This document shows, in pieces, positions 8,651 to 38,179 of a stretch of 64,000 nt of DNA. A program made the translations under genes and the position numbers. The notes under the pieces are model-generated. The model saw nothing but the letters and a program-made list of their open reading frames with translations. It was not told the origin of the DNA and did no database searches. Location: positions 65,682-129,681 of the forward strand of contig JAKLHK010000005.1 of assembly GCA_022710185.1 (NCBI GenBank), read 5' to 3'. The stretch's first letter is position 1. Each line of letters opens with the position of its first letter. The DNA comes from Bacteroidota bacterium (GTDB lineage Bacteria > Bacteroidota > Bacteroidia > Bacteroidales > JAGNHN01).

Positions 8651-10119
8651 GGGAAAAAGGGCTGCAGCATATCCTATACCGTGCCGGCATCATCGCTACG
8701 GAAGGTCCCCTGGATCGCCGGGTGGACCACCTCAGCATTGACTCGCGTCAGTTGGGGCCTTCCAGCCTGTTTGCCGCCCTGCCGGGCACGCGCACCGATG
8801 GCCACGCCTTCATCCCTGCCGCCATCGCGGGAGGGGCAGGGGTAATCCTCTGTGAGCGCATGCCCGAGACCCGCCCTGCGGGTATCACCTTTATTCAGGT
8901 GAATGATGCCAGGAAGGCCCTGGGCAGCATCGCCTCCAACTTCTACGACCATCCCAGCGCTTCCCTGCAGCTGGTCGGAGTTACGGGTACCAACGGCAAG
9001 ACCACCACGGCCAGCCTGCTTTATCAGGTGTTCCGTTCCCTGGGCTATGCCAGTGGGTTGCTGTCGACCATCAGCAATCGCATCGATACCCGTGAGGTGG
9101 CCGCAACGCATACCACACCGGATGTGATCTCCATCAACCGCTGGCTGGCGGAAATGGCTGAAGCCCGCTGCGCCTATGCCTTCATGGAGGTGAGCTCACA
9201 TGCCGTAGACCAGGAGCGCATCGCCGGCCTGCGCTTTGCCGGGGCCATCTTCAGTAACCTCACCCACGACCACCTGGATTACCACCATACGTTCGAAGCC
9301 TACCGGGATGCCAAGAAGGCCTTCTTCGACGGGCTCGGCAAGGAGGCGTTCGCCCTGAGCAATACCGACGACCGCAACGGGAGTGTGATGCTGCAGAACA
9401 CCTCCGCCCGCTGCCGCAGCTACGGCCTGCTGCGCCCTGCCGATTACAAAGGCCAGGTGATGGAGAGCGATTTCAGCGGGATGCAGCTGCGGGTGAACGG
9501 ACAGGAGCTCTGGACCCCCCTGGTCGGCCGCTTCAATGCATACAACCTGCTTGCGGTCTATGGCGCAGCCAGCGAACTGGGCGTCAGCCCGGAGGAACTG
9601 CTCCCGGTGCTGAGCACAGTGCGCCCGGCCGAAGGACGTTTTGAATATGTACGCGATGAGGCCGGACGGACGGCCATTGTGGACTACGCCCATACACCCG
9701 ACGCCCTGAAAAACGTGCTGGAGACCATCAACGACATCCGTGGGGTACAGGGGACGCTGATCACTGTGGTTGGTGCCGGTGGGGACCGCGACGCCACCAA
9801 GCGCCCGGTCATGGCGGCTACCGCTGCTCAGCTGAGCGACCGCCTCATCCTGACCTCCGACAACCCCCGTTCCGAGGACCCTGAACAGATCATCCGCGAG
9901 ATGCAGGCCGGACTGGATGCGCTGACCCGCCGCAAGACCATCGCCATCACCGACCGCCGCGAGGCCATACGCACCGCCGTGGCACTGGCCGGAAACGGGG
10001 ACATCATCCTCATCGCCGGAAAAGGCCATGAGAAATACCAGGAGATCCAGGGGGTAAAGCACCCCTTCGACGATAAGCAAGTCGTGGCCGAAGCCTTAAA
10101 GGAAACCTCACAAGGATAG
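8647..10119 (+). CDS. murE: UDP-N-acetylmuramoyl-L-alanyl-D-glutamate--2,6-diaminopimelate ligase MurE
   Basis: [12 protein letters not shown]-loop and DNPR motif. The ATG at 8647 forms an ATGA overlap with the ftsI stop. The upstream in-frame extension (8374-8646) lies inside ftsI. Confidence 0.92.
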
Positions 10120-17177: not shown

Positions 17178-18432
17178 AATCATCGTCGGGCTCGATATCG
17201 GGACCACCAAGATCGCCGCGATCGTCGGACGCCGCAATGAGTTCGGCAAGATCGAGATCCTGGGTTCGGGCAAAAGCCCCTCGCTGGGCGTCAGGAGGGG
17301 CGTAGTATCGAACATCGAAAATACGGTCAAGTCCATCCGTGCCGCGGTGGAAGAGGCCAGCGAGCGTTCCGGGGTGGACATCCGCTACGTGAACGTGGGC
17401 ATTGCAGGACAGCACATCAAGAGCCTGCAGCATCGCGGGGGGATCATCCGCAATTCCCGCGAAGAGGAGATCAACCAGGCGGATATCGACCGTCTGCATT
17501 CCTCCATGTTCAACCTGGCCATGAGTCCCGGGGAAGAGATCATCGATGTGATCCCCCAGGAGTTCATTATCGATGGGGAGCCCGGGCTGAAGGAGCCTAT
17601 CGGGATGCTGGGCAACAGCCTCGAAGCCAATTTCCACATCATCACAGGCCAGACCACGGCAGCCAAGAATATTTATAAATGTGTGAAGAAGGCCGGCCTG
17701 GAAGTAGTGGAGCTCATCCTTGAGCCCCTGGCCTCTTCGGCAGCCTGCCTGAGCGAGGAAGAGAAGGAAGCCGGGGTGGTGCTCGTGGACATCGGCGGGG
17801 GAACCACCGACATCGCCATCTTCCAGGACGGCATCATACGGCATACCGCCGTGATCCCCTTCGGAGGGGAGATCATCACCGAAGACATCAAGGAAGGCTG
17901 CAGTATCATCCGCAAGCATGCCGAAGAGCTCAAGGTGAGGTTCGGCAGCGCCCTGGCCAGCGAGAACCGCGATGAGGAGATCGTGTCCATCCCCGGCCTC
18001 AGGGGAAGGCCCGCCCGCGAGATCACCCTGAAGAACCTGGCCAGCATCATCCAGGCCCGCATGGAAGAGATCATCGAATACGTGTATTTCGAAATAAAGA
18101 ATAGCGGGTACGAGCGTAAGCTCATCGCCGGCATCGTACTCACCGGCGGCGGCGCCCAGCTCAAACATATCAGCCAGCTCACCCAGTTCATCACCGGCAT
18201 GGATACCCGCATCGGGTATCCCAACGAACACCTTGCCAAGGAGGTGGGACGCGAAATGGCCAGCCCCATGTACGCCACCGGCATCGGCCTGGTGATCACC
18301 GGCATGGAACGCTTCGAACGCGAACTGGTGAAGGAGAACATGTTAACACGAAACGACCGCAAGGCCCCGCGTCGGGAAAAAAGCGGCTTCTTCGAGAAAA
18401 TCAAGAACTGGTTCGAAGAAGAACAGATCTGA
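17164..18432 (+). CDS. ftsA: Cell division protein FtsA
   Basis: Actin-fold motifs VGLDIGTTKIAAIVG and VDIGGGTTDIAIF, with a C-terminal amphipathic tail. Confidence 0.92.
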   Translation: MKSSEIIVGLDIGTTKIAAIVGRRNEFGKIEILGSGKSPSLGVRRGVVSNIENTVKSIRAAVEEASERSGVDIRYVNVGIAGQHIKSLQHRGGIIRNSREEEINQADIDRLHSSMFNLAMSPGEEIIDVIPQEFIIDGEPGLKEPIGMLGNSLEANFHIITGQTTAAKNIYKCVKKAGLEVVELILEPLASSAACLSEEEKEAGVVLVDIGGGTTDIAIFQDGIIRHTAVIPFGGEIITEDIKEGCSIIRKHAEELKVRFGSALASENRDEEIVSIPGLRGRPAREITLKNLASIIQARMEEIIEYVYFEIKNSGYERKLIAGIVLTGGGAQLKHISQLTQFITGMDTRIGYPNEHLAKEVGREMASPMYATGIGLVITGMERFERELVKENMLTRNDRKAPRREKSGFFEKIKNWFEEEQI

Positions 18433-18468
18433 ACCAAGCTGAATTCATAACCCAAAACACCTATAAAA

Positions 18469-20121
18469 ATGCCAGCAAACCTGAAATTCGACCTTCCGAA
18501 GAACCAGAGCAACATCATCAAGGTCATCGGAATCGGCGGCGGCGGATCCAACGCGGTCAACCACATGTACAAAGAAGGGATCACCGGGGTAGACTTCATC
18601 GTCTGCAATACCGATGCCCAGGCACTCGACTTCAGCCCGGTGCCGTCCAAGATCCAGCTCGGCGCCAGCCTCACTGAGGGCCGGGGCGCAGGGTCCATCC
18701 CGGAGAAAGGCAAGAACGCCGCCCTGGAGAACCTTGACGAGCTGAGGGCCATCCTGGACCACAACACCAAAATGGTGTTCATCACCGCGGGCATGGGCGG
18801 AGGTACCGGTACCGGCGGTGCGCCTGTGGTTGCCTCCCTGGCCAGGGAAATGGGCATCCTTACGGTGGGCATCGTCACCATCCCCTTCCTGTTCGAGGGC
18901 CGTAAACGTAAGCAACAGGCCGACAATGGCATCGAAGAACTGCGCCGCAATGTGGATACCCTGCTGGTGATCTGCAACGACAAGCTGCGCGAACTCTACG
19001 GCGACCTTACCCTGTCCCGCGCCTTCGGAAAGGCCGATGACATCCTCACCGTGGCCGCCAAGGGCATAGCCGAGATCATCACGGTACCAGGCTACATCAA
19101 CGTGGACTTCGAAGACATCAACACCGTGATGCGCGACAGCGGTGTGGCCATCATGGGATCGGGCAGCGCCGAAGGTCCTGACAGGGCCACCAAGGCCATC
19201 AAGGAAGCCCTGGAATCCCCCCTGCTGAACGATAACGACATCTACGGGGCCGAGAACATCCTGCTGTACATCACCTCCGGGGAGGAAGAAGTCTCCATGG
19301 ACGAGGTGAGCGAGATCACCGATTACATCCAGAAGGAAGCCGGTATGGAAGCCGACATCATCTGGGGCAACGGCACCGATGAAAACCTCGGGATGCGCCT
19401 GAACATCACCCTGGTGGCCACCGGTTTCGACAAGAAGGAACGCAAGCGCAAGCAGGCCGAGCCGGAGAAGGTAGTGGTAGGCGCCCTGGGCGAAACCCCC
19501 GCCCCGGCCCCCTACGTGGAACCGGAGCCCGCCACCCAGACCATGGAAGTGGCCGAAGAAGAAGTACGCATGGTGCTCCCCCAGGCCCCGGCGGTGACGA
19601 TGCACACCCTCACCGAGGAAGAACCGCCGGTGTTCCAGGACATCACCTCCCAGCCCGACTATATGCCGCTGATCCCCGAGGAGCAGGAATCGGAGATCGA
19701 GCTCCTGCTGCGCGACACCAGCCGGCCGGCCGTAGAGCGCCAGGAGAGCTGGGCACGCCAGGAAGTCACAGGGGTTTCCGAAGTGGAAAAGGTTCATGAA
19801 GAAATTCGTCGCGTGGTCACGCCGGAAGCCCGCACCTCCCGCGAAGAGCAGGCCGCGGAACCCGGCCGCAACGGGAACGAGGGCAGGGCCATGGACCGCG
19901 TGAAGCGCCTGAAGGAGATGAGCCTTAAACTGCGCTCCTTCAACGACATCAACGAACTGGAACGCCAGCCCGCCTATGTGCGCCGCAACGTCGACCTTAC
20001 AGATCCCCCCCACAGCTCCGAATCGCAGATCAGCCGTTTCTCCCTGTCCGAAAACGGCGGTGACCGCAACGGCAGCGAGCTGAGGCAGAACAACTCCTTC
20101 CTTCACGACAACGTAGATTAA
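18469..20121 (+). CDS. ftsZ: Cell division protein FtsZ with a long acidic/proline-rich linker
   Basis: GIGGGGSNAVNHM and the tubulin signature AGMGGGTGTGGAPV. 550 aa, with about 200 aa of low-complexity linker before the conserved C-terminal peptide. Confidence 0.95.
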   Translation: MPANLKFDLPKNQSNIIKVIGIGGGGSNAVNHMYKEGITGVDFIVCNTDAQALDFSPVPSKIQLGASLTEGRGAGSIPEKGKNAALENLDELRAILDHNTKMVFITAGMGGGTGTGGAPVVASLAREMGILTVGIVTIPFLFEGRKRKQQADNGIEELRRNVDTLLVICNDKLRELYGDLTLSRAFGKADDILTVAAKGIAEIITVPGYINVDFEDINTVMRDSGVAIMGSGSAEGPDRATKAIKEALESPLLNDNDIYGAENILLYITSGEEEVSMDEVSEITDYIQKEAGMEADIIWGNGTDENLGMRLNITLVATGFDKKERKRKQAEPEKVVVGALGETPAPAPYVEPEPATQTMEVAEEEVRMVLPQAPAVTMHTLTEEEPPVFQDITSQPDYMPLIPEEQESEIELLLRDTSRPAVERQESWARQEVTGVSEVEKVHEEIRRVVTPEARTSREEQAAEPGRNGNEGRAMDRVKRLKEMSLKLRSFNDINELERQPAYVRRNVDLTDPPHSSESQISRFSLSENGGDRNGSELRQNNSFLHDNVD

Positions 20122-20127
20122 CGCACC

Positions 20128-20580
20128 ATGAGCCTGGCAGAGATCATCAACGAGGACATGAAGTCCGCCATGCGGGAGCGCAACCAGCGCAAACTGGAAG
20201 CCCTGCGTGCTATCAAGGCCGGCCTGCTCCTGCTCAAGACGGGCAAGGATGTGAGCAGCGGCGAGATCCCTGCGGAGTTGGAAGTGCAACTGATCCAGAA
20301 ACTGGTGAAGCAGCGCGAGGAGAGCGCGGTGATCTACCGCCAGCAAGGGCGCGCCGACCTGGCGGAGGAGGAAGAGTTCCAGGCCGGGGTCATCAAGGCC
20401 TACCTCCCGCAGCAGATGAGCGAAGCAGAGATCCGGACCTATCTGGTGGAGCTTATGGCCAGGCTGGGCGTCAACGACGCCAAGGGCATGGGCAAGGTAA
20501 TGGGCAACGCCGCGAAGGAACTCGCCGGCAAGGCCGACAACCGCCTCATATCCCACTTGCTGAAAGACCTGCTGGGCTAG
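20128..20580 (+). CDS. GatB/YqeY domain-containing protein
   Basis: 150 aa. The pattern MSLAEIINEDMKSAMRERNQRKLEALRAIKA is typical of the YqeY family. Confidence 0.85.
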   Translation: MSLAEIINEDMKSAMRERNQRKLEALRAIKAGLLLLKTGKDVSSGEIPAELEVQLIQKLVKQREESAVIYRQQGRADLAEEEEFQAGVIKAYLPQQMSEAEIRTYLVELMARLGVNDAKGMGKVMGNAAKELAGKADNRLISHLLKDLLG

Positions 20581-21138: not shown

Positions 21139-22215
21139 TCATCCATCCCCCCTCCTTCGCTTGAAATCCTTCTTGTAGTAATCCTTGATCACCTTCCCCA
21201 TGAGTTTTTCCCGCCTCTTCTTCTCGCCGGCCTCGGTCTCGAAGTGGGCACGCTCCCTTTCCAGCCGGAGGTAGTTGTCCCAGGCGTCCGCGTCGATCTC
21301 CCCCTGCTCCAGGGCGTGCAGCACGGCACAGCCGTTCTCCCGGGTGTGGGTGCAATCGGCATAACGGCATTGCCGGGCCAGGTCGAGGATGCGGTCGAAG
21401 GTGGCTTCCAGCCCCCCGCCCCCATCGGTAATGCCTACCTCCCGCATGCCGGGGTTATCAATGATCAGCCCGCCCCCCTTCAGCAGCACAAGCTCCCGGT
21501 GGGTGGTGGTATGTCTCCCCTTGTTCGTGCTTTCGCTCAGGGTCCGTGTGTGCATGTACTCTCCCCCAGCCAGATGGTTGAGCAGGGTTGACTTCCCTGC
21601 ACCGGAAGAGCCCAGCAGGCAATAGGTCTTGCCGGCCTCTATCCTCTGCCTCAGCTCCTCCAAACCTTCTCCGCTCACCGCGCTCATCACCAGGAAGGGC
21701 ACCTCCGGATGGCGCTGCTGCAGCCGCTCCCGCACCTCATGGCAGTGGTTCTCCCCGCACAGGTCAGCTTTGGTGAGCACTATCACCGGGCTCACCCGGG
21801 CGGCATAGCACAGGGTGAGGTAGCGATCCAGACGGTTCAGGTTGAAATCGCGGTCCAGGGCCTGCACCAGGAAGGCATAATCGATGTTGGCCGCGATGAG
21901 TTGTACTTCCCCGTGCTGTCCCACGGCCTGGCGGGTAAGCGCAGCGGTCCGCGGAAGGACCTTATGGATCAGGGCCTGCTCCTCCCCCGCAGCGATCAAG
22001 GCCACCCAATCGCCCACGGCAGGAAAATCCTCCCGGTTGCGGGCACTGAACCTCAGGTTCCCCGTTACCTCCGCCTGCACCTCCCCCCCATCGGTCATCA
22101 CGATATAGCGTTCCTTGTGCTCGGCAGTCACCCTCCCCACACCAAAACCCATCAACCCCTGCTCCCGCCGGTAGTGCTCCAGGTCTTCAGTATAACCCCA
22201 TTCGATGATATTCAT
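21139..22215 (-). CDS. rsgA: Ribosome small subunit-dependent GTPase A (RsgA/YjeQ)
   Basis: Circularly permuted GTPase (TKADL ... GSSGAGKSTLLN) with the zinc knuckle CRYADCTHTRENGCAV. It carries a basic C-terminal tail. Confidence 0.9.
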   Translation of the reverse strand: MNIIEWGYTEDLEHYRREQGLMGFGVGRVTAEHKERYIVMTDGGEVQAEVTGNLRFSARNREDFPAVGDWVALIAAGEEQALIHKVLPRTAALTRQAVGQHGEVQLIAANIDYAFLVQALDRDFNLNRLDRYLTLCYAARVSPVIVLTKADLCGENHCHEVRERLQQRHPEVPFLVMSAVSGEGLEELRQRIEAGKTYCLLGSSGAGKSTLLNHLAGGEYMHTRTLSESTNKGRHTTTHRELVLLKGGGLIIDNPGMREVGITDGGGGLEATFDRILDLARQCRYADCTHTRENGCAVLHALEQGEIDADAWDNYLRLERERAHFETEAGEKKRREKLMGKVIKDYYKKDFKRRRGDG

Positions 22216-22288
22216 GACATTAAAATATAATGTCCCCCAGGCAGCGCCTGACCGGCATCAGGCCTCTCCCCAAATCAACCAGCAGAAA

Positions 22289-25594
<3,306 letters not shown>

Positions 25595-25704
25595 GGGTCT
25601 GTTATTTTCTTGCCCGGCTTGGTTCCGGGTGCCGGGGATACCTGCAATAATCGTTCTATTTCTTCCCCCTGCCATAATGGCAAGAAGGAGTGCAAAGGTA
25701 CGAA

Positions 25705-25740
25705 TACTAAAAAGAGCGGTTTTTACCGCTCTTTTTAGTA
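25705..25740 (-). terminator. Hairpin terminator overlapping the stop of the DUF2795 gene
   Basis: Perfect 16-nt inverted repeat tactaaaaagagcggt / accgctctttttagta with a tttt loop. On the minus strand the stem ends in a U-run. It lies between the DUF2795 stop and the secA start. Confidence 0.55.
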
Positions 25741-27646: not shown

Positions 27647-27959
27647 AGTGACTAATTTTGAACGGGTTAGAAGCACATCAATGGCCTGGTCTTAAACTGC
27701 CGTTGTTCCTTGTCCCTTGCACAATATCCCCATCCTTCTGAAATCTGAGATCGTAAATTCCGCCAGCAGGCGGACAATCCTTTTTCGATATTCCATAATT
27801 CACCACAGATTACACAGATTTTCACAGAGGTACCAGTGCCTGAAGTTGATAGTACTTGGAGTTAGGAGTTAAGAGTACCTGGAGTGCTGTACGCTGTCCG
27901 CTTCGCGTTTTTCCGCTATTCGCCTATTTTCATTATCATAAAATATACGCCAAAATCGT

Positions 27960-27992
27960 GGCGGCTATTTCCAGATAATGCAAATAGCCGCC
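27960..27992. other. Perfect 11-bp stem hairpin in the left flank of the island
   Basis: ggcggctattt (27960-27970) pairs with aaatagccgcc (27982-27992) across an 11-nt loop, followed by an A-run on the plus strand. Function unknown. Confidence 0.5.
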
Positions 27993-28305
27993 AAAAATTC
28001 CAGCCACACCCAGCAGAGGGCACGTTGCTCAGTTACTCGCCGGACAGCCAGCCCTTGGCCGGGATTGCGCAAGTGTCTGATTATGTGAAACAAGGAATTT
28101 CCCTTGCATATCACAGCGACCATGTGACTAAAAATCTAACCCAAGGTACCCATAGTCCAAATATTCTCAATATCTTTAGGTCTGTGACTTAGGCTCTTGA
28201 TTATCAGACAATGAACACCGTCCGCTAAATGCGAAATATCCGCCATAGGTTCTGATAGCGAAATGTTATGCCCAATGCTGAAAAACAACCTAACGACAAC
28301 ATAAA

Positions 28306-29760
28306 ATGAAGAAATTTGACCTAAACATTGAGAAAATTCTTGAAAACTGGGAAACATTTCATGCTATCCGAGAACTAATTGCAAATGCACTTGATGAACA
28401 ACTTATTACTAATACAAAGGAGGTTGAAATATTCAAAGTAGGTAATACTTGGAAAATCAGAGACTTTGGACGGGGATTAAAATATACTCATTTGACACAA
28501 AATGAAAACCAAGAAAAACTTTCAAATCCTCATGTTATAGGGAAATTTGGAATTGGACTAAAAGATGCTTTAGCAACTTTCGACAGAAAAGGTATAAAAG
28601 TAATTGCAAAATCAAAACACAGTAAAATAACAATCGCAAAATCTGAAAAAGAAGGGTTCAAAGATTTATTGACTCTTCATGCAATTATTGAAGCCCCACA
28701 AGACCCAAACTTTATTGGGACCGAGTTTGAACTTGTTGGGATAAATGATAATGACATTAACGAGGCAAAAAAATTATTTCTAAAGTTTTCAGGTGAGAGA
28801 ACAATGGAAATTACAAAACAAGGTCAAGTAGTTAGAAAAAACAGCACGTTTGGCAACATTTATATCAATGGAGTAAAAGTTGCGGAAGAAGAAAATTTTC
28901 TCTTCAGCTACAATATTACTGTATTAAATGCTTCAATAAAAAAAGCTCTTAACAGAGAAAGAACAAATGTCGGGAGAAGTGCATATTCAGAATCAGTAAA
29001 AAAAATATTATTGTCTTGCCAATCTAAGGAGGTTGCTGAAACATTGGCTAAAGATTTGACAAATATAAATAGAGGAACTGCACACGACGAGTTAACCTGG
29101 CTTGATGTTCAGGAACACTCTGTTAAAATATTAAATCAACAGGGCAAATTTCTTTTTATAACTTCGTTTGAAGCAATGCAACATCCAGACATGATAGACC
29201 AAGCTAGAAATAGTGGTCATGAAATCATAACAATCCCTGAAAATTTAAAGTATAAAATTCAAGGCTCAACCGACTTTAACGGTAGCCCTATTGTGGATAT
29301 TGGGCAATTCGTTGAAAACTACAATAACAGTTTCAATTTTAACTTTATAGACCCAAATAAATTAAGTCAAAAGGAAAAAGCCATTTATGACCAAACTCCA
29401 AAAATCATTGAACTATTTGGTGGTAAACCATATAAAGTAAAGTCAATAAAAATTTCATCTACAATGAGAAAAGACTTTTTTGGTGAAGTTGAAACACTTG
29501 GTTGCTGGGATGATAATACAAACTCAATAGTTATTTCACGTAAAGTATTAAATAACATTACAGACTTTTCAGGAACTTTGATACATGAGCTCGTTCATGC
29601 TGATACTGGACATGATGATGTAACTAGGGATTTTGAAACATCACTGACAACAATAATTGGACGACTATCTTCAACAATTCTTGGACAAAAAGTTTCCTTA
29701 ATTAGCAATTCAAATTCTAAAAAGAATTCTTCTTGGCTTCAAAAATTTTTTGGAGAGTAA
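28306..29760 (+). CDS. GHKL (Bergerat-fold, MORC/Hsp90-like) ATPase fused to a C-terminal HExxH zincin-like motif
   Basis: 484 aa. N-box ELIANALDE (aa 23-31), G1 box DFGRGL (53-58), G2 box GKFGIGLK (79-86), and IHELVHADTGHDD (HExxH at aa 427-431, nt 29584-29598). Confidence 0.75.
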   Translation: MKKFDLNIEKILENWETFHAIRELIANALDEQLITNTKEVEIFKVGNTWKIRDFGRGLKYTHLTQNENQEKLSNPHVIGKFGIGLKDALATFDRKGIKVIAKSKHSKITIAKSEKEGFKDLLTLHAIIEAPQDPNFIGTEFELVGINDNDINEAKKLFLKFSGERTMEITKQGQVVRKNSTFGNIYINGVKVAEEENFLFSYNITVLNASIKKALNRERTNVGRSAYSESVKKILLSCQSKEVAETLAKDLTNINRGTAHDELTWLDVQEHSVKILNQQGKFLFITSFEAMQHPDMIDQARNSGHEIITIPENLKYKIQGSTDFNGSPIVDIGQFVENYNNSFNFNFIDPNKLSQKEKAIYDQTPKIIELFGGKPYKVKSIKISSTMRKDFFGEVETLGCWDDNTNSIVISRKVLNNITDFSGTLIHELVHADTGHDDVTRDFETSLTTIIGRLSSTILGQKVSLISNSNSKKNSSWLQKFFGE

Positions 29761-30102
29761 TGACAAGTGACAATAAGAAAAATGAATAAAAGCACAGGGC
29801 ATAACAATGTACATATTGCAGGGCGGGGTTTGGAGGTATGCCAACTGCGGATTCTCGCATCGCAGTTCCGTGTCCTTCGGACAGGAACGCTCTCCGAAAT
29901 CCGCCCCGACAACATGTACCAACCGTTACCGCCAAGTGTAAGAGACAGACAACGACATAGAAAAACTGAAAAGTAAACCATTGTGAAAGGACAGAAAAAA
30001 GAAATATTGACTAGACCAGAGACCCGACACTCGAGCCGACCCGATGTTTTTTATTTTTTGCCCACCGCACATTTTTTAAAACAATTGCCGACCCACATTG
30101 CA

Positions 30103-30155
30103 CACATTGCCAAAGCCCCACAAGCCAACGCTACAACCAAAGCTTTGTCAAAGAG
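30103..30155. repeat. 53-bp direct repeat, copy 1 (upstream of the 1668-aa gene)
   Basis: cacattgccaaagccccacAagccaacGctacaaccaaagctttgtcaaagag matches 36982-37034 at 51 of 53 positions. Confidence 0.9.
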
Positions 30156-30191
30156 TGCAATTTTGCCGACACACTAAAAAAGAATATCACT

Positions 30192-33100
30192 ATGCTTTAT
30201 ATAAAAGACCTTTCCTTTTTCAGACAGTATTATAAATCGCAAGAAGCTTTAAATTTTGATAGGTCGATAGATACTTCATTTATTAACACTTTTCACCCTG
30301 AAAAACCAACGAATAAAACTAAAGGTTTTTCTTATTTGGTATATGGTGCAAGAGGTAATATCGGAGGATTTTTAAGGAGTGCTTCATTAAATGTCGCTGC
30401 TGACCAACAAGCGATTTATGAACTTATTCAAAATGCTGACGATTGCGAGGCAAATCTTTTCAGTGTTTTCTACAACAGGGAATATCTATTGTGTATCAAC
30501 AATGGTACTCCATTCTCAAAAAGGAATATGTCAGCAATATTAAATGTTGGCGATTCAGACAAAGATGCAGAAGATATTGGAACATTTGGGATAGGTTTTA
30601 AAATTATTCACCGACTCTTGGGTGAGGATGATGGATTGAAAGCGATATTGAATGATTATGCCGGGCCAATTATATACAGTTGGAATCAGTACAATCATTT
30701 AAAAAGATTACTAAGTGATGATGAAATTGTAATTAATAAAAACGGTTCAAGAGATGATGATTGTCCCTGGTTATTGAAAATAATTTATACCTGTTTTCCA
30801 ACGCATTTAGGTGAAAGTATAAAAAATGAAAAATATTCTGATGAAACATTATTTACAATTGAGGAATTCAATGAATTCAAACTTTTTCTTAAAAATTCAT
30901 TAGCAAAACTTAATACGTTTACGGAAAACAATCTTCGACAAGGTTCAATATTTTTCCTAAGAATTGGTGCAGATAAGTTCAAATACATTGATGAGAATAT
31001 AGATAACATTTTTAATGGAATTGGTTATTCATTCAATTTCCTAAATCATTTGAAGCGAATTTATATTAATGAAAAAGAGATAAATAAAGAGAAAATCACC
31101 TTAGAAAAATTTGAATATCCTATTGGTAGCGATCAATACAACTTAATTAGACCAAGAAATGAAGAACGGAATATTGACTTTTCTTTTTCATATTATAAAA
31201 ACTACAAAACCGCATTAAAACTAAAGGATGTACCAAATATTTATAACTTCTTCTCAATGGAGGAAGAAAAAAATGGTTGGTGTTTCTTATTGCATTGCAA
31301 TTCTTTTGATATGCATAATGATAGAAGAAAACTTCAACCAAATTCAAATATAAATGAACGACTTTTACCCAGTATTGCTAACGAAATCAAACAATTTTTA
31401 GTAGACCTTTCCGACACAAATACTGATTCATTTATCAATATTTATCCATCGTTATTAATAAGTGATATTCCAGAAAGTAAACAACATCTTAAAGATTATT
31501 TTTTCGATATTTTGACTACCATTTTATCGGAGAGAATACCGACAGATAATGGGTTTTCTGATAATTCACAGGATGTGGTAATTAAAAAAACAAAACTACC
31601 AATATCACCAAGAGATTGGGGAGTAGAAAAAGATTGGTTTTATTGGACGGATTTTAAAGAGGATGAGGTAATAATCAAAGAAGCCCAAAAAGAAGAAAAA
31701 ATTGGCCTAGAAAAAGTGTCAATTTCATCATTGATTGAAAATGGAGACATTGATACAATCAATGAATGGATTTTTAATGCGAATGAAAAGGATTTTACTC
31801 TCTTTCTAAATGAGTTAGAAAAGGATATTCCTGATGAAAATTTCCTTGATTTGCAATTTTTAAAATGCTCCGATACTTATTACTATTCAATCAATGAAAT
31901 TGCTTCAAATTCTAATGTTTTGTGCCTTTTTGAAAAGATTCACGAAATAAAGGATATTCTAAACGAATTAGAGTTAATTACAACGGAAATAAATATTTCT
32001 GATTTCAAGAACATCGCAGAAAAAGCTAGTAAAAAACTTCCGTATCTTAAAACTATTGGTGAAAAAAAGGTTTTTGATGATTTTATCAAAGATGCAACAA
32101 CTGAAAATAATTTAACTCCAAAAAGTAAAAAAAGATTATTCGTTGCAATAAAAGAACTTTATAATGTTGGGGACAAATCATTAAAGGAATGGGAATTGTT
32201 TTCCAATAATGAAATGGAAATATGCTCCTTAAACACATTAATAAGCCCTTCAATCAAGGTTGAGAAATGGCTTATCAAATATCAAATCATTAAAAGTGAA
32301 TTCTTTGAAGAACTTGAGGAGTATTTGTTGCAAGCAGATGACATTTACCCATCAATTATTTATCCACTTTGGGACGAGTTAATAGAAGTCGATGAAATTG
32401 ATGAAATAACCATAGGTGAATTTTATTCTTCTGTAAAAAACTATTTTGATGAAGAAGCGCATAAATCACTAACATTAAATAAGAAGGCGTACATTTTTAC
32501 TTCTGAAGGGTTCTTTCCAACATCTGAGGTTTTCTATAATGAAGTTTTTAACTCCATTATGGATTACCCATCCTTAAAAAGCTCAATAGAAAAAGTTACT
32601 GGATTTAAGACACCATCAAAAAAAGTTTTAAAGTACTTAACTGAAAGTCCTTTTAAAACAGATAATGACAAATTATTGGACCATCTTTCTGATTGTTCCA
32701 TAGAGCAGTCAGAAGCTTATGAATTGCTGAGATATTGTCAAAAAGCAGATGTTAAACTTTTTTCGAAAGGAGTTTTTTGTGAATCTGGTAATGATATTGA
32801 CTGGGAATGCAATGATTCAAAAATACAGTACTTTTCAGAAGATTCAAGATTAATTGAATTTATCAATGAATATTTAGAAGATACTTTTTATCTTCTACCA
32901 TCAGCTTTACAGGACTTCAAATTTTTTGAAGGTATCAGACGAAATCAAGAACTTTATGAAGAAATAATTGAGCAACTTGATAATATAAATGATTTGGCGG
33001 CTGAGTTCTTGCCATTATTGAAACATAAAGAAGTTATTAAATCATATATATCAAATTTACCTGATATAAGGATTGAAAACAGAATTTCATTTGATAAAAG

Positions 33101-35198
33101 TAGTTTTGAACATATTGTGGTTTCAAATATCATCTCACATTTTGAAGACGAAGAACTTGAAGAAATAAAGGAGAGAATTATAATTTGCGATGATGATACT
33201 GAATTTAAATTAGAAGAAATAGTTACTGGTAACGAGGTTCAATTTGACATCGATAATAAGTTATACAATATCAAAGTTTCGGAAATATTGCCTGACTCTG
33301 ACAATTTTTCCAAAGCTGAAATACTTGACGTTATTATTGCAAATTTCAAAAAACTTGAACTGTCCAAAACCAAAATTGATAAATTACTCTCTGTCGAGAT
33401 TGAAGAGGACGACCTTGCTGAAAAACTTGCCGAGGAATTACTTGGGTCACTTGAAGATAATATCCTTGAAACTGCTGAACAGATTGCTTTTTGTCTTTTA
33501 TATGAATTACAGGCAGGGTGGTCTAAATTTGATGATTTTCAGATTTACGCTTCGAACAATGAAACATATAAACTAAATGAGGTATGGTATGCCAAACCAT
33601 TTTCATTTCTAAGTGAAACAGGTGCAATTGGGGAACAATATAAAGGGCTTTCAAAGTTGCTCAAGATTAAAGATGAAAACCCAATTTTTAAAGTCAGTGA
33701 TAGTTGTATTTTTCTTTATAAACCTGCTTTTGATGAAGATGGTAGATTTGTTTGCAATTATATTGATGAGAAATTAGACGATGACAATAGTATTGCGTTA
33801 CTCGATTTTTTGTTTGAAGAATATAATAAACGAGGAAAGGAAAGCAGACGTGACTTTGAGGAAATTGATGATTGGTCAAAACTTGGAGACACTGAAACAG
33901 AAAAAATAATAGGCATCAATCCGCATAATACAATCTTTATCGAAAACGATAAATTTATGTTGTCTGATGAAGTCGTACCGGAGTGGATTCAGGATTGGGC
34001 AAAAGATGAAGCAAAAATTTCATTCTTAAAAGTATTGGGAATTCATTTCAATGATTCGGATATTGTTAAGCTAAGGGAATCTCTTTATGATGAAGATGGC
34101 TCTATAACAAAGAATGACATAAATGGAAGTAACTCCTTAAATGCATTTTTATTGGAGAACACTTTAAAATGGCTTGTAGAATCAGAGATATGGGAAGATA
34201 AGGTAATTGATGAACCTGTAAAAGTTGAACTTCTTGATGCGATTATTGAAAAATTAGGTTGGGATTTAGAGGATTATTGGTCTGTTGACATTGAAGAACT
34301 AAATGAAAACAGCGAGGAATGGGTAGATGAGGGTTATTCAAATTGGCGTGAAGAAGAGGATTCATTTGAAATAAGAATGTATAATGATCAAATGCCTTAT
34401 ATCTTACAATATGAAAATAATATTCTTGCTGAGAAAAATCAAGATGAATACTGGTATGATGATGAAAATCAAATATTTTATACAAACAAAAATAAATCCA
34501 CCCATTTATTGCTTCAAAATGCTGCTGAAGAAGAGTTGTTTGATTTAGACACAATAAAACCACTAATCCAACAAGGTCTGGTAAAAGTTAAAGATTATGT
34601 AGATCGCATAGAGCAACTTGAAGCAGAATTACAGCAATTTAGACAACCTAAAGGAGATATTACTAGAGGTACTGCTGATTCAGAAACAATGGGTGCAGTT
34701 CTTGATGAAACTCTAAATATGGTTAGAGAAGAACTAGAACAAGACGAGAATTATAATTGCACACATTGGGACAATTCACGATTTCCAAAGACTTTGGTTC
34801 AAGGGGTATTATATAAAGAGATTCCGATAAAGCTGATCGTTCGCAGTTGTCAAAGAGGTAGACTCCATCTAATCCCTAAAGAATGGCTATTACTATCAGA
34901 ACCTAATACTTTTTTAGTGCTACGGTTATCAAAACACAAAATTGAAGTAATCCCAGAACCACTTAAGGAGCTTGCCGAATCAAACAACCTATTTAATATG
35001 AATTTTGATTTGGAAAGATTAACCACAAATGGGGTCACAGCTTTAAGCAAGGCAATTGAAAGTTCAAATATTAAATATGTTGGTGTTGGTTTCGTAATAG
35101 ATGCACCAAGATATTCCAGAAGTATTGAACTTAATGAAATCGGATTATACGTTACAAATCAGGGTGATATTTCATCTGCAAATGACAATGAGTTTTAA
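30192..35198 (+). CDS. Giant sacsin/NO VEIN-like GHKL ATPase domain protein with a possible NOV_C (DUF3883)-like C-terminal module
   Basis: 1668 aa. YELIQNADD (aa 76-84), INNGTPF (102-108) and GTFGIGFK (130-137) reproduce the sacsin SRR pattern (ELIQNAxDA ... NN..F ... GrFGIGF). About 1300 aa of acidic/lysine-rich sequence has no motif I recognise. Residues about 1500-1590 resemble NOV_C. Confidence 0.7.
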   Translation: MLYIKDLSFFRQYYKSQEALNFDRSIDTSFINTFHPEKPTNKTKGFSYLVYGARGNIGGFLRSASLNVAADQQAIYELIQNADDCEANLFSVFYNREYLLCINNGTPFSKRNMSAILNVGDSDKDAEDIGTFGIGFKIIHRLLGEDDGLKAILNDYAGPIIYSWNQYNHLKRLLSDDEIVINKNGSRDDDCPWLLKIIYTCFPTHLGESIKNEKYSDETLFTIEEFNEFKLFLKNSLAKLNTFTENNLRQGSIFFLRIGADKFKYIDENIDNIFNGIGYSFNFLNHLKRIYINEKEINKEKITLEKFEYPIGSDQYNLIRPRNEERNIDFSFSYYKNYKTALKLKDVPNIYNFFSMEEEKNGWCFLLHCNSFDMHNDRRKLQPNSNINERLLPSIANEIKQFLVDLSDTNTDSFINIYPSLLISDIPESKQHLKDYFFDILTTILSERIPTDNGFSDNSQDVVIKKTKLPISPRDWGVEKDWFYWTDFKEDEVIIKEAQKEEKIGLEKVSISSLIENGDIDTINEWIFNANEKDFTLFLNELEKDIPDENFLDLQFLKCSDTYYYSINEIASNSNVLCLFEKIHEIKDILNELELITTEINISDFKNIAEKASKKLPYLKTIGEKKVFDDFIKDATTENNLTPKSKKRLFVAIKELYNVGDKSLKEWELFSNNEMEICSLNTLISPSIKVEKWLIKYQIIKSEFFEELEEYLLQADDIYPSIIYPLWDELIEVDEIDEITIGEFYSSVKNYFDEEAHKSLTLNKKAYIFTSEGFFPTSEVFYNEVFNSIMDYPSLKSSIEKVTGFKTPSKKVLKYLTESPFKTDNDKLLDHLSDCSIEQSEAYELLRYCQKADVKLFSKGVFCESGNDIDWECNDSKIQYFSEDSRLIEFINEYLEDTFYLLPSALQDFKFFEGIRRNQELYEEIIEQLDNINDLAAEFLPLLKHKEVIKSYISNLPDIRIENRISFDKSSFEHIVVSNIISHFEDEELEEIKERIIICDDDTEFKLEEIVTGNEVQFDIDNKLYNIKVSEILPDSDNFSKAEILDVIIANFKKLELSKTKIDKLLSVEIEEDDLAEKLAEELLGSLEDNILETAEQIAFCLLYELQAGWSKFDDFQIYASNNETYKLNEVWYAKPFSFLSETGAIGEQYKGLSKLLKIKDENPIFKVSDSCIFLYKPAFDEDGRFVCNYIDEKLDDDNSIALLDFLFEEYNKRGKESRRDFEEIDDWSKLGDTETEKIIGINPHNTIFIENDKFMLSDEVVPEWIQDWAKDEAKISFLKVLGIHFNDSDIVKLRESLYDEDGSITKNDINGSNSLNAFLLENTLKWLVESEIWEDKVIDEPVKVELLDAIIEKLGWDLEDYWSVDIEELNENSEEWVDEGYSNWREEEDSFEIRMYNDQMPYILQYENNILAEKNQDEYWYDDENQIFYTNKNKSTHLLLQNAAEEELFDLDTIKPLIQQGLVKVKDYVDRIEQLEAELQQFRQPKGDITRGTADSETMGAVLDETLNMVREELEQDENYNCTHWDNSRFPKTLVQGVLYKEIPIKLIVRSCQRGRLHLIPKEWLLLSEPNTFLVLRLSKHKIEVIPEPLKELAESNNLFNMNFDLERLTTNGVTALSKAIESSNIKYVGVGFVIDAPRYSRSIELNEIGLYVTNQGDISSANDNEF

Positions 35199-36968
35199 AT
35201 GCAATTAGACCGAACTGAACATATTAAACTGTTAGACCTTGAGTTAAAAACTCAATCAGACAATTATTTAAAACTGGTTTTACAGAAAGCAACTGCCCTT
35301 ATTGAACAAGAGGAGGTCTTCACAAGTCAGTTTGTGAAATTTGAAGATGGAATACTTGTATTAAAATTAAAAACAGAAAAAGCACTTCCTCGCAAAGGTC
35401 AATACTTATCAGCAGTTTTACTAAATGATGAAAAAAGAAGTTATAAAAACTGGGGTGATTTGTCTTGGGCTGAATTGAGAAACAAATATCAAAATAGTTT
35501 TTCTGAATGTGTTTGTGTTTGGCATAAGTCATATGATGAGAAAAGATTTCAGCTAGCAGGCTTTAAAGGTATTTCACTTGATTTTGCTGGGAAATTGGTT
35601 GACAAGTGTTTAGTTACCCTTGGTCCGCACGAACCACCTTTGAAATATTTGCAAAATTTAATCGAGATAGTTACAAATACTCCAAAAGATCTACCCTCTG
35701 CAAGATTCCTTGATATTCATTTAGCTAATAATGAGTGGATTCCTACGATACTTGATGAGAAACGTAACTTATCTGATTTTATTCAAACGCAACTTTCTAT
35801 TTCTGATGAAATTATTATTCAAGGACCTCCAGGAACAGGGAAGACTTATCAAATGGCAAAATTAATTGCTGACTTATTAGATAAAAACAAAAGTGTCCTT
35901 GCTACTTCATTAACCAATCGTTCGTTAATAGAATTGGCTTCAAAGAAGTTTTTGGAAAATCATCGTAAAAGTGAAAAGATTTACAAAACAAATCTTACTA
36001 AAGACGAACAAGAAGAATTGCCAGGGTTATTAAACTCAAAGGATATTCAGGTAATATCAGGTACAGTATTGCTTTCAACATTTTATATCTCAAGTGGCTT
36101 TGCAAAAGAAATACAAGATGAACCACCGTTTGATTTTGTTATTGTTGATGAAGCAAGTCAGGCTTTATTATCAATGTTTTGTGCTGCAAAGAAACTAGGG
36201 AAGAAAGTTGTTTTTATTGGAGACCCGTATCAATTACCACCGGTTGTTGAAGTCAATAAGGATATAATTGAAAAGAAAAATGCTATAAGTTTTGTTGAAG
36301 GATTCAATACTATCTGTAGAAATTTATCAATTCCATCATTTCAACTAACAGAAACCTACAGGCTGCCAACAAGAGCTACCCAATATACTGGTCTATTTTA
36401 CCGTAACACATTAGTTTCAAAGGCAAATAAAAAACTGAGATTCCAATTTCCTGAATGCGGTCTTGAATTTAATAAATATCTAAACCCTGATGGTGGACCT
36501 GTATTGATTAAATCAAGTTTTCCAATTGGTAATGACAACCCTGATTTTGGTCTTTTTTTAATCATAGACTTTTTAAAACAGTTGATGTTTGTTTTGGAAA
36601 AGGATTTCAAGATAGCTTTAATTGCAAAAACTAAAAAGGCAGTAAGAGCAATTCAAAAAGCAATGACAGCAACTTTTGGCAGTGATGATAGGATTTTAAT
36701 TGAAACTGTTGAAAGAATTCAAGGTCTTACTTGTGACTTAACCATTTTTTTCATCCCAAATTCAAGTATGAATTATTCTTTGAAAAAGCCGCTATTTAAT
36801 GTCGCAACAAGTAGAGCAACGAGACACACAATAATTATTGCAGACAAAGCAATTACTACATATCCTATTGCTGACAAACTTGTTAGAGATTTTATTCATA
36901 AATTGAACGATGAATATAGTTTTGAAATTGAACCAAAAATAAATATGAAAAAACTTACAGAAGGTTAA
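35199..36968 (+). CDS. Superfamily 1 helicase, Upf1/DNA2-like (AAA_11/AAA_12 type)
   Basis: 589 aa. Walker A GPPGTGKT (aa 209-216, nt 35823-35846), Walker B VIVDEASQ, GDPYQLPPV, TYRLP, ERIQGLTCD and NVATSRATRH. The ATG directly abuts the TAA of the upstream gene. Confidence 0.85.
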   Translation: MQLDRTEHIKLLDLELKTQSDNYLKLVLQKATALIEQEEVFTSQFVKFEDGILVLKLKTEKALPRKGQYLSAVLLNDEKRSYKNWGDLSWAELRNKYQNSFSECVCVWHKSYDEKRFQLAGFKGISLDFAGKLVDKCLVTLGPHEPPLKYLQNLIEIVTNTPKDLPSARFLDIHLANNEWIPTILDEKRNLSDFIQTQLSISDEIIIQGPPGTGKTYQMAKLIADLLDKNKSVLATSLTNRSLIELASKKFLENHRKSEKIYKTNLTKDEQEELPGLLNSKDIQVISGTVLLSTFYISSGFAKEIQDEPPFDFVIVDEASQALLSMFCAAKKLGKKVVFIGDPYQLPPVVEVNKDIIEKKNAISFVEGFNTICRNLSIPSFQLTETYRLPTRATQYTGLFYRNTLVSKANKKLRFQFPECGLEFNKYLNPDGGPVLIKSSFPIGNDNPDFGLFLIIDFLKQLMFVLEKDFKIALIAKTKKAVRAIQKAMTATFGSDDRILIETVERIQGLTCDLTIFFIPNSSMNYSLKKPLFNVATSRATRHTIIIADKAITTYPIADKLVRDFIHKLNDEYSFEIEPKINMKKLTEG

Positions 36969-36981
36969 CCCGATTTGCAAG

Positions 36982-37034
36982 CACATTGCCAAAGCCCCAC
37001 GAGCCAACACTACAACCAAAGCTTTGTCAAAGAG
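36982..37034. repeat. 53-bp direct repeat, copy 2 (downstream of the helicase gene)
   Basis: It matches 30103-30155 with 2 mismatches and begins 14 nt after the helicase stop codon. Confidence 0.9.
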
Positions 37035-37357
37035 CTTGCAAAGCCAACGCACCGAGAAAAATTGTTTTAAAAAATTTGCCGACACTTAAAAAAATAAAAA
37101 ACGCTGACACACAAGCCGACAGAAAAAAGTAAAATGACAATGACACGAAAACTGAATATTAACAATGGTATACAAGACTGGAAGACAGAACACCAGGCGG
37201 TAACAGGCGGTATATTTTATTGCCGAGACAGTGGGTATTTCAGCGTTTCTGCATCTAATAAACTTTCGTGTAACTTGACAGTGAAGTGCTTCGAAATCGG
37301 CAACAAAAACATACCGCCAATCCGTTAGCAGCCATATCAAAATAGCAGGACTAAACT

Positions 37358-37849
37358 ATGAGAATCTTTTTAATTATTTTATTCTTTTTAGCTTTCACTT
37401 TAGTTAATGCCCAATACAAAATGTTTTCAGGTATTCATGATACAATCAACTTAGATTTGTCGACTTTACTGGAGAATACTGGCTTTGGGAAAGCAACATA
37501 CTATTATGATGATATTGAGAAGAAAGATGGTGTTTGGAACTTCTATCCAATGATTAATTTGTCAAAATCATTAACCGCAGTATGGGTCAGCACAATTCCA
37601 GGCCGAAATAATGGCTATACATTTCTTTTAATTTTTGATATTAATACTCATAAAATCTCGGATACCTTGGGACCATATTATGATTCTAGTATTGATGCTA
37701 TTAAGGGCAGAATAAAGAAGAATAATTTAAATTATTTAAAGGTTCGACTATCAAATCCACCGGAAGTAGAGAATTCAAAATATACTATCAGGGAATATAA
37801 ACGTATTGAGGGTAACCTTAAAGAATATAGAAGTCGTGATAATTATTGA
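37358..37849 (+). CDS. Small secreted hypothetical protein
   Basis: 163 aa, AT-rich codon usage. Signal peptide MRIFLIILFFLAFTLVNA followed by Q at +1. No recognisable catalytic motif. Confidence 0.6.
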   Translation: MRIFLIILFFLAFTLVNAQYKMFSGIHDTINLDLSTLLENTGFGKATYYYDDIEKKDGVWNFYPMINLSKSLTAVWVSTIPGRNNGYTFLLIFDINTHKISDTLGPYYDSSIDAIKGRIKKNNLNYLKVRLSNPPEVENSKYTIREYKRIEGNLKEYRSRDNY

Positions 37850-38179
37850 TACGGCTGCTAATAAGTAAGGCTTCGTGCGGCGATAGCCCAGTCCGCCATC
37901 TGGCGGATTGCACGAAATCCCGCGCCTTATGGGGTTTAAGTATCGAAAGCAGTGATCAGGGAAGAGCGAACGACAAGGTTCTTGGATAAGCTAAAGCAGG
38001 CAGGCTGGTTGAAAGGCCAGTAACCGGGTCTTTTGAAAGGATTTAGGGGCGAAATATCTTTCGGGGACTAATCCCGCGCATCAGCGCGTAAACATTACCG
38101 GACCCGGCAGGCGGCAGGATTTGTCAGGCCTCGCTCAACCTAAGCATTGATTTGGGCAGATGCACCCCGGCCCCTCCCC

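Follow-up and report, generated by a model that had tools for sequence, protein, structure and literature searches.

The window analysed here is a stretch of 64,000 nucleotides from a Bacteroidota bacterium (contig JAKLHK010000005.1, positions 65,682 to 129,681), in which one open reading frame (ORF) at 30192..35198 on the + strand encodes a protein of 1668 amino acids. What is such a giant protein, and with what does it act? An earlier note, made from the letters of the window, had described it as a sacsin/NO VEIN-like protein with a degenerate C-terminal nuclease-like module and a large uncharacterised middle. We find that the locus is a known defence family in variant form, namely a two-gene, nuclease-motif-less version of the Tiamat system that is carried on an unusually large integron-type cassette. 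The mechanism that we favour, and which we hold to be probable with considerable room for doubt, is that the nuclease-motif-less Tiamat protein (TmtA) and a helicase form a cassette pair, in which TmtA would be an ATP-driven clamp or sensor handing phage nucleic acid to the helicase. All features described below are on the + strand unless stated otherwise.

Family identity and reality of the locus

The ORF runs from ATG to TAA over 1668 codons for amino acids, exactly as the earlier note had given it. When the protein was compared with the PADLOC model PDLC03970 for TmtA, residues 4-1614 matched profile positions 3-1538 of 1552 (E=0, 1146.7 bits), and from this profile match we assign the product to the Tiamat anti-phage family as a full-length member. 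It is therefore not an orphan giant, because the match to a named anti-phage family model extends over its full length. A database search returned 178 TmtA relatives, most of them 1550-1750 amino acids long and most from Bacteroidota-type metagenome bins; more than 100 full-length homologues of the 1668-residue protein are known in this way. The same PADLOC model is matched by relatives of both C-terminal types, canonical and variant, which are described below. Tiamat is reportedly the single-gene anti-phage system of Millman et al. 2022, represented by models PDLC03964-03972 in PADLOC-DB. The literature that is accessible describes it as a single-gene system of unknown mechanism, and one survey places it among the PD-(D/E)XK-containing systems (bioRxiv 10.1101/2024.10.26.620412).

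The abrupt fall in GC content from about 0.60 to 0.31 at this locus could speak for an artefact, either a fused ORF or a misplaced contig segment within high-GC sequence, and the earlier note had raised the possibility of a fusion. We give it next to no credence. Both junctions between the low-GC island and its high-GC flanks, as well as the gene order, were recovered in five independent assemblies, and a chimera is ruled out because these give identical junctions. Furthermore, homologues that agree in length and in the order of domains are abundant, the limits of the island are defined cassette boundaries, and the exact island proteins are present on a 145-kb contig of a metagenome-assembled genome (MAG) labelled Bacteroidales. 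As far as sequence data reach, the artefact is refuted.

The N-terminal ATPase module

The best-conserved part of the TmtA family is the N-terminal module including its ATP-binding motifs. In the window protein the Bergerat-fold ATP-binding core occupies residues 71-142 (30402..30617; ExxxNxxD, INNG, GTFGIGFK), and its motifs read YELIQNADD at 76-84, INNGTPF at 102-108 and GTFGIGFK at 130-137. E77, N81, D84, N103, N104 and G105 are conserved in at least 90% of the family, and G130, G133, G135 and K137 are invariant. On residues 73-142 the NCBIfam model NF047352 ("sacsin N-terminal ATP-binding-like") gives 66.4 bits, its cut-off being 50, while Pfam SACS (PF25794) reaches 32.3 against a gathering score of 32.8 and is therefore 0.5 bit short (E 1.2e-7). 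The sole PDB sequence match of TmtA is the Hsp90-like domain of human sacsin (5V44-46), the alignment with which shares QNAxD and GxFGIGF and sets YNN opposite INN. The sacsin SRR pattern that the earlier note had recognised at residues 76-137 is thus borne out by the motifs, the model score and the sacsin alignment. It had also called the ATP-lid region divergent. The NNG in place of DxG is indeed present, but it is no peculiarity: because human sacsin aligns YNN with INN, the Asn in place of the canonical GHKL Asp is a trait of the sacsin clade.

The structure was predicted in two halves (residues 1-800 and 780-1668), with a 72-sequence alignment for each. The AlphaFold model of residues 1-800 has a pLDDT (predicted local distance difference test) of 85.6, and Foldseek aligned it with full-length Hsp90/TRAP1 over about 700 columns (E 5e-9) and with the ATPase modules of MORC2 and MORC3 (E 2e-7). 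Motifs and model mark the N-terminus as a GHKL ATPase module, sacsin-type and Hsp90/MORC-like, in which the GHKL domain is followed by a middle, transducer-like region and which extends over residues 1 to about 720 (30192..32351). The residues for nucleotide binding and hydrolysis are conserved, and ATPase activity is predicted.

The middle region and the variant C-terminal domain

Since residues 1-800 align with Hsp90/TRAP1 over about 700 columns, the uncharacterised middle begins only at about residue 720. The estimate of roughly 1300 motif-less residues in the earlier note was therefore too high, as the Hsp90/MORC-like fold covers a good part of them. The middle region itself, residues ~721-1477 (32352..34622), is of mixed alpha/beta structure in a confident model (pLDDT 83.3 for residues 780-1668), with no Pfam match, no PDB match at E<0.89 and, by profile self-comparison, no internal repeats in TmtA, for which the earlier note had suggested looking. 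Foldseek of residues 780-1668 against the PDB gave nothing significant, the best match being the PD-(D/E)XK nuclease Cas4 (E 0.89). The segment-wise fold search, also suggested there, thus placed the first half with Hsp90/TRAP1 and MORC but left the second without a significant PDB match. On these predictions, about 750 residues of unassigned fold follow the GHKL module.

The last part of the protein, residues 1478-1668 (34623..35198), is a variant domain at the position of NOV_C, without the catalytic D and (D/E)xK. We compared it with its relatives in a family alignment of the last 260 residues. Four relatives (P0018, P0019, P0044 and P0072) score 27.8-39.8 bits on Pfam NOV_C (PF13020; gathering score 22.1) at the extreme C-terminus, and such NOV_C-positive relatives have the helix Glu, the "yDFEI" strand and the (D/E)xK in the form YIDCKGT ("IDCKGT") or "VDSKST". 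In the window clade the DFE strand, which provides the metal-binding Asp, is deleted relative to them, and the acidic residue of (D/E)xK is I or V throughout. The Lys is retained in sister clades ("VVKS") and is Arg in the window TmtA ("IVRS"). The "NEW" motif that follows the (D/E)xK position is retained in the window clade, and about 100 additional residues come after it. The earlier note was right that the E-x-K is replaced, as the positions aligned with the (D/E)xK of NOV_C-positive relatives read LIVRS. Its statement that the C-terminus follows the outline of NOV_C is correct in that the position is the same as in the relatives. However, Pfam NOV_C gave no match to the window protein, neither on the whole protein at E<=1 nor on its last 229 residues alone at E<=10, and because of this the outline amounts to no more than position plus a pair of short motifs. 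It may be that the variant domain arose by decay of a NOV_C.

Out of 1.8 billion representative proteins, a profile of the variant domain retrieved 347 clusters at 50% identity, and among the matches listed it stands at the C-terminal end of nearly all. When six diverse full-length matches were checked, all six were sacsin-GHKL giants that match TmtA models. A protein of 2245 amino acids (P0170) has the variant C-terminal domain and a sacsin GHKL together with an N-terminal S1 RNA-binding domain, which hints that some members of the family could bind RNA. In a neighbor-joining tree of the N-terminal 720 residues the C-terminal types are interleaved. This suggests swapping of C-terminal modules among TmtA proteins, although the tree is crude and we do not rely on it.

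Could the window TmtA still be a nuclease? A rearranged PD-(D/E)XK site would take its acidic residues from other elements, and the helicase encoded next to TmtA would then be an accessory for processivity or loading. Among the conserved residues of the variant domain are E1506 (97%), K/R1551, S1552 (100%) and E1564 (95%), and the top fold match of the C-terminal model, a non-significant one, is the nuclease Cas4, both of which would suit such a site. Set against them are the clade-wide loss of the metal-binding Asp strand and of the acidic (D/E), the replacement of Lys by Arg in the window subclade, and the fact that many of the helicase partners have a PIN nuclease of their own, as expected after nuclease loss from TmtA. 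We regard a rearranged nuclease as distinctly improbable and keep to the reading of TmtA as a clamp without nuclease motifs.

The partner helicase and the either/or rule

Directly downstream, at 35199..36968, a gene whose ATG abuts the TmtA stop codon encodes a protein of 589 amino acids. It matches Pfam AAA_11 (69.3 bits, gathering 27) and AAA_12 (31.3 bits, gathering 27), and its motor motifs are intact: GPPGTGKT (Walker A), DEASQ (Walker B), GDxxQLPP (motif III) and FNVATSRA (motif VI). Its best PDB matches are IGHMBP2, DNA2 and Sen1. From the Pfam domains, the intact motifs and these relatives, the partner is therefore an Upf1-like superfamily 1B (SF1B) helicase. Given the abutting stop and start codons, the two genes are predicted to be co-transcribed. 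The earlier note had not noticed this gene, nor the Tiamat/TmtA identity, the NNG norm of the sacsin clade or the mobile integron-type cassette.

The neighbours of TmtA were surveyed in about 36 distinct loci, comprising genome and metagenome loci and contigs that carry exact homologues. Where TmtA has no canonical nuclease motifs, a helicase homologue (32-96% identity) lies directly downstream in all of about 28 distinct loci; where the nuclease motifs are intact, TmtA stands alone in eight of eight, with a helicase neighbour in none. In the examined loci, without exception, TmtA has lost the nuclease motifs where the helicase is present and only there. Because the helicase partner is invariable, we argue from these gene neighbourhoods that the variant subfamily is probably a two-gene system. 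In many lineages the helicase is fused to a C-terminal PIN_4 nuclease domain; there is no PIN domain in the helicase lineage of the window.

The nature of the helicase also bears on the question of whether the pair acts on RNA. TmtA would then sense infection and the helicase, together with the PIN RNase where fused, would unwind or degrade phage or host transcripts, leading to translation arrest or abortive infection. The nearest solved relatives of the helicase include RNA or RNA/DNA helicases (IGHMBP2, Sen1 and the Upf1-like 5'-3' RNA helicases), its best PADLOC match is the helicase region of Mokosh MkoA, PIN_4 domains are commonly RNases, and an S1 RNA-binding domain is found in the 2245-residue protein with the same C-terminal domain. 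On the other hand, DNA2 matches the helicase equally well, the canonical TmtA has a restriction-endonuclease-like DNase domain, and the GHKL relatives in conflict systems (MORC, MutL, Topo VI) work on DNA. We consider action on RNA unlikely and continue with the clamp-and-helicase pair acting on phage nucleic acid.

The other genes around TmtA vary from locus to locus and are typically defence genes, such as BREX, McrBC, GmrSD, type I restriction-modification, AbiE, Wadjet and pAgo. This setting has a bearing on whether the pair is an anti-phage system at all. It could instead act in DNA maintenance or in a chaperone-like way, or be a selfish module that stabilises the cassette array. Integron arrays are known to carry addiction modules, and the defence role of the helicase-paired subfamily is itself a prediction. 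In addition, sacsin is a chaperone (Anderson et al., as cited in PMC3710099). Nevertheless, the protein matches a defence-family model over its full length and in genomes unrelated to one another the pair is consistently found amid genes for restriction, BREX, Abi and pAgo, and we rate a non-defence role as very improbable compared with the defence pair proposed here.

A different, multi-gene TmtA context was seen in one locus (L009, 1070-18127), where a canonical NOV_C TmtA lies among a 1719-aa (amino acid) DEAD/ResIII helicase, a 955-aa SNF2 helicase and a 1344-aa Eco57I-type methyltransferase.

Proposed mechanism

Hsp90, MutL, MORC and Topo VI-B dimerise upon ATP binding and serve as clamps. 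DUF3883, for its part, is described as a restriction-endonuclease domain (PMC3710099). It is from these two points, ATP-dimerised GHKL clamps and a restriction-endonuclease domain, that we arrive at the clamp or sensor proposal for TmtA. Like Hsp90, MutL and MORC, TmtA would dimerise via its GHKL domain on binding ATP, and the dimer, operated by ATP, would clamp or sense the nucleic acid of an invader. In a stand-alone TmtA, the C-terminal nuclease would cut the nucleic acid so trapped. In the variant TmtA, the C-terminal domain would have turned into a non-catalytic module for binding or docking and the effector step would have moved to the helicase, which would translocate 5'->3' on phage nucleic acid. 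The fused PIN nuclease would degrade this nucleic acid in many lineages, and in the lineage of the window, with no PIN, the helicase would unwind it or strip proteins off.

Several points weigh against this proposal. Asn104 stands in for the adenine-contacting Asp, and ATP binding is putative. The comparison of variant and canonical C-terminal profiles by hhalign is not significant (E 0.26), and NOV_C homology is not demonstrable. Since E1506, K/R1551, S1552 and E1564 are kept, a rearranged active site may exist. The target could be RNA instead of DNA. On the mechanism of Tiamat or on TmtA, the accessible literature offers mere listings. The weakest link is how the PIN-less pair of the window stops a phage: neither TmtA nor the helicase has a recognisable nuclease, and the killing or blocking step may lie in unwinding or stripping, in a residual or rearranged active site, or in an RNA target.

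The cassette and its attC-like site

How TmtA and the helicase are kept together can be seen from the boundaries of the region that they share with other contigs. A unit of about 7.4 kb is common to independent contigs at 86-99.9% identity, and the homology ends at 29925 and 37327, at G/TTA (the slash marks the boundary). For example, one contig (L038) has 99.9% nucleotide identity over 29925-37327, and the homology of another (L005) runs to 37327. The cassette at 29925..37327 starts with G/TTACCGCC and ends with AATCCG/TTA. Its first nine nucleotides, TTACCGCC, are the exact reverse complement of GGCGGTAAC at 37197, 229 nt (nucleotides) past the helicase stop, and GGCGGTAAC opens an imperfect hairpin of 135 nt ending in ATACCGCC-AATCC-G/TTA. 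This hairpin belongs to an attC-like structured recombination site at 37194..37331, which scores 126.6 bits with our covariance model R1 and has a single-stranded DNA fold z of -2.3.

The complementarity between cassette start and R'' is an exact 9-mer in cassettes 1 and 2 of the window and has one mismatch in cassette 3. The 9-mer predicted from the start of the next cassette occurs exactly once in each of L001 and L005, at a distance of 11-16 nt behind the stop codon of that cassette's gene, and the one predicted upstream of TmtA is exact in L014 and has one mismatch in L036. Seven attC-like sites from five different cassettes can be aligned over their full length, with invariant AACA and CAA.CCGTT ends. 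In their consensus hairpin 87% of the cells are paired compared with 70% when shuffled and 37-43% in slid controls; 17 pairs show compensatory changes, which is equalled by 0 of 500 shuffles. The covariance model built from these seven sites found 38 further sites in 45 metagenome loci, all on the strand of TmtA, and such sites flank the TmtA-helicase(-PIN) pair on both sides in at least nine contigs. Integron gene cassettes are defined by features such as these, among them a crossover at G/TT and imperfect inverted repeats (R''-L'' ... L'-R') that fold into a bulged hairpin and are conserved more in structure than in sequence. The sites depart from a textbook attC in their 5' and 3' spacings, which are 1 nt and 4-5 nt, respectively. 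Rfam, from which an attC model is absent, gave no family on the island. No integrase or other recombinase was found within the 64-kb window, and the array is for that reason CALIN-like (cluster of attC sites lacking integron-integrases). From the homology breakpoints and the paired ends, we conclude that TmtA and the helicase probably travel jointly as one 7.4-kb integron-type cassette in a low-GC array of three cassettes.

The cassette also contains a direct repeat of about 65 nt. Copy 1 (30092..30157) lies upstream of TmtA and has a 53-nt core that is 96% identical to 36982-37034, within copy 2 (36972..37036) just past the helicase stop codon. The element also precedes TmtA in L001, L005 and L014, the last with a TmtA protein only 37% identical, and this conservation suggests a regulatory element (promoter, operator or leader). 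We had considered the repeat as the boundary of a mobile element and rejected this, as the homology breakpoints and attC-like sites set the ends at 29925 and 37327.

Related arrays show what kind of recombinase may be involved. One metagenome contig (L067) has five attC-like sites, at 2874, 4859, 7245, 14734 and 15531, and its array begins beside a divergent tyrosine recombinase of 288 amino acids at 633-1499 on the - strand. With NF040815 ("tyrosine recombinase/integron integrase", cut-off 220) this recombinase reaches 246.5; with TIGR02249 it reaches 232.8, below the cut-off of 265, and part of the IntI profile is missing from it. The cassettes encode a DNA methyltransferase with an unknown gene, GmrSD, and TmtA-helicase-PIN. 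By these features the contig could be a complete integron-like element that founds a Bacteroidota-type integron family. In two other contigs (L022, ~7795-7965, and L024, ~9478-9573), short C-terminal fragments of an IntI-like recombinase (HSFATHLLE, TTEIYTH and, before the stop codon, IRSPLDNL) immediately precede TmtA, read in its direction, and resemble the remnants of a pseudogene.

Neighbouring cassettes and the rest of the window

The three-cassette array is 10 kb long with 31% GC in a 60% GC genome, the GC content being 0.28-0.36 over ~28.3-37.9 kb and about 0.60 on either side. Cassette 1 (28265..29931) starts with GTTATGCCC at 28265, which pairs with R'' GGGCATAAC at 29797, and its attC-like site (29795-29931) scores 90.4 bits with the covariance model. 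It encodes a protein of 484 amino acids (28306-29760), a GHKL ATPase with a classical N-terminus (ExxxNxxD, DFGRG, GKFGIG) fused to a C-terminal HExxH zinc-metalloprotease motif, HELVH. The protein matches the phage families phrog_6077 and phrog_8203 and Pfam MPN635_N, with no PADLOC match, and it may be an undescribed defence gene. We rejected it as a third component of the TmtA system, as it is never beside TmtA elsewhere and occupies its own cassette.

Cassette 3 (37324..37935) starts with GTTAGCAGC at 37324, which pairs with GCTGCTAAT at 37854 with one mismatch. Its attC-like hairpin is degenerate; it was missed by the covariance model, and its R'' ends in AAT. The cassette encodes a low-GC ORF of 163 amino acids (37358-37849), which matches no family and whose hydrophobic N-terminus resembles a signal peptide, and the exact protein is recorded in NCBI as a Bacteroidales MAG protein.

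As for other means of integration, there are no tRNA genes in the window that might have been a target, and no direct or inverted repeats of at least 11 nt enclose the entire island in the manner of att sites. About 600 non-coding nucleotides (27650-28264; GC 0.41-0.48) separate the host TPR/PMT_2 gene from cassette 1, and they include a hairpin with 15-nt arms at 27959-27993 (GGCGGCTA and TAGCCGCC). This segment might be what is left of an attI-like site, or else a cassette that has decayed; there is no recombinase gene nearby.

Two further regions of the window were recorded. An ORF of 1177 amino acids at 22205-25738 (+), with no Pfam, NCBIfam or PADLOC match, is overlapped nearly fully by an antisense ORF of 1128 amino acids at 22289-25675 (-), and the region has a strongly negative AT skew (-0.15 to -0.23). 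At 18001-20000 the AT skew is unusually high (+0.29 over 2 kb), and an ORF of 703 amino acids at 18445-20556 (-) lies there without a Pfam match.

Implications

Tiamat is widespread and its mechanism is unknown, and from this the either/or pattern takes its value. The alternation of nuclease and helicase yields a hypothesis that can be tested by mutation, in which the GHKL giant would be the sensor or clamp and the C-terminal module an exchangeable effector interface. A further implication is that rules detecting Tiamat as a single gene mis-describe a large share of the family. What the cassette result suggests is that Bacteroidota-like genomes have integron-type arrays with defence operons of 7 kb. 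Integron cassettes would then occur in more hosts and over a larger span of sizes, and a cassette origin would explain a defence operon of 31% GC within a chromosome of 60% GC.

A bolder reading can be put forward tentatively, and we lean somewhat against it. The helicase-coupled form would be a distinct two-component immune system, in which an Upf1-like motor is licensed by a GHKL clamp of sacsin type whose nuclease domain is degenerate, and the lineage of the window would defend by unwinding or stripping and not by cutting. Separately, Bacteroidota-type genomes would, on the same reading, contain an undescribed integron-like system, made up of a 135-nt attC family and a short recombinase of the IntI/XerA-like kind, which moves multi-kilobase, multi-gene defence cassettes, contrary to the view that integron cassettes for defence have to be small.

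Comparison with known systems

With Tiamat the window locus has in common the full-length match to PDLC03970, the sacsin-type GHKL N-terminus and the location in defence islands. Tiamat is described as a single gene, whereas the window TmtA is without the NOV_C motifs and the variant invariably has an SF1B helicase as partner, be it fused to PIN or not; no mention of a helicase partner was found in the accessible literature on Tiamat. The sacsin SRR and plant NO VEIN share the ATP-binding motifs, including the Asn for the canonical Asp, and the arrangement of an N-terminal GHKL and a C-terminal NOV_C in NO VEIN is common to the canonical TmtA relatives. However, sacsin and NO VEIN are eukaryotic, while the window TmtA is bacterial, lies in a defence and mobile context, has no detectable NOV_C and is without HEPN, DnaJ and Ubl domains.

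GHKL ATPases of the MORC/paraMORC and MutL types are described in restriction-modification-like conflict systems (Iyer, Abhiman and Aravind 2008, PMC2292703). The GHKL and middle domains of TmtA are similar in fold to MORC2/3, and its loci are likewise helicase- or nuclease-linked defence loci; by analogy, an ATP-driven dimerising clamp is likely to be the working principle in common with these ATPases. By sequence, on the other hand, TmtA belongs to the sacsin clade and not to MORC, and it is far larger, with about 950 more residues of unknown fold. For the partner helicase, the best PADLOC matches are MkoA and MkoC of Mokosh, with which the helicase-plus-nuclease logic is shared where PIN is fused, and other SF1B-helicase defence proteins that match it are PLuB, ProA and Hhe. 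In all of these only the motor core is matched, with scores far under the family cut-offs, and the N-terminal 190 residues of the partner are unique in comparison with Mokosh, Hhe, ProA and PLuB. Moreover, the partner in Mokosh is a PLD nuclease, while that of the window helicase is a GHKL giant.

Integron cassettes are reported to encode anti-phage systems "streamlined" to small size limits (Darracq et al., bioRxiv 10.1101/2024.07.02.601686), and complete integrons are reported to be nearly absent from Bacteroidetes. The window cassette differs from the reported small ones in its 7.4 kb and in its Bacteroidota-type host, and further differences are that the window array is without an integrase and that the recombinase of the related array, at 288 amino acids, is below the integron-integrase cut-off. 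In common with them, a defence system is carried as a cassette, the boundary is a folded attC-like site with AAC/GTT cores, and related arrays adjoin a divergent tyrosine recombinase of the IntI/Xer group.

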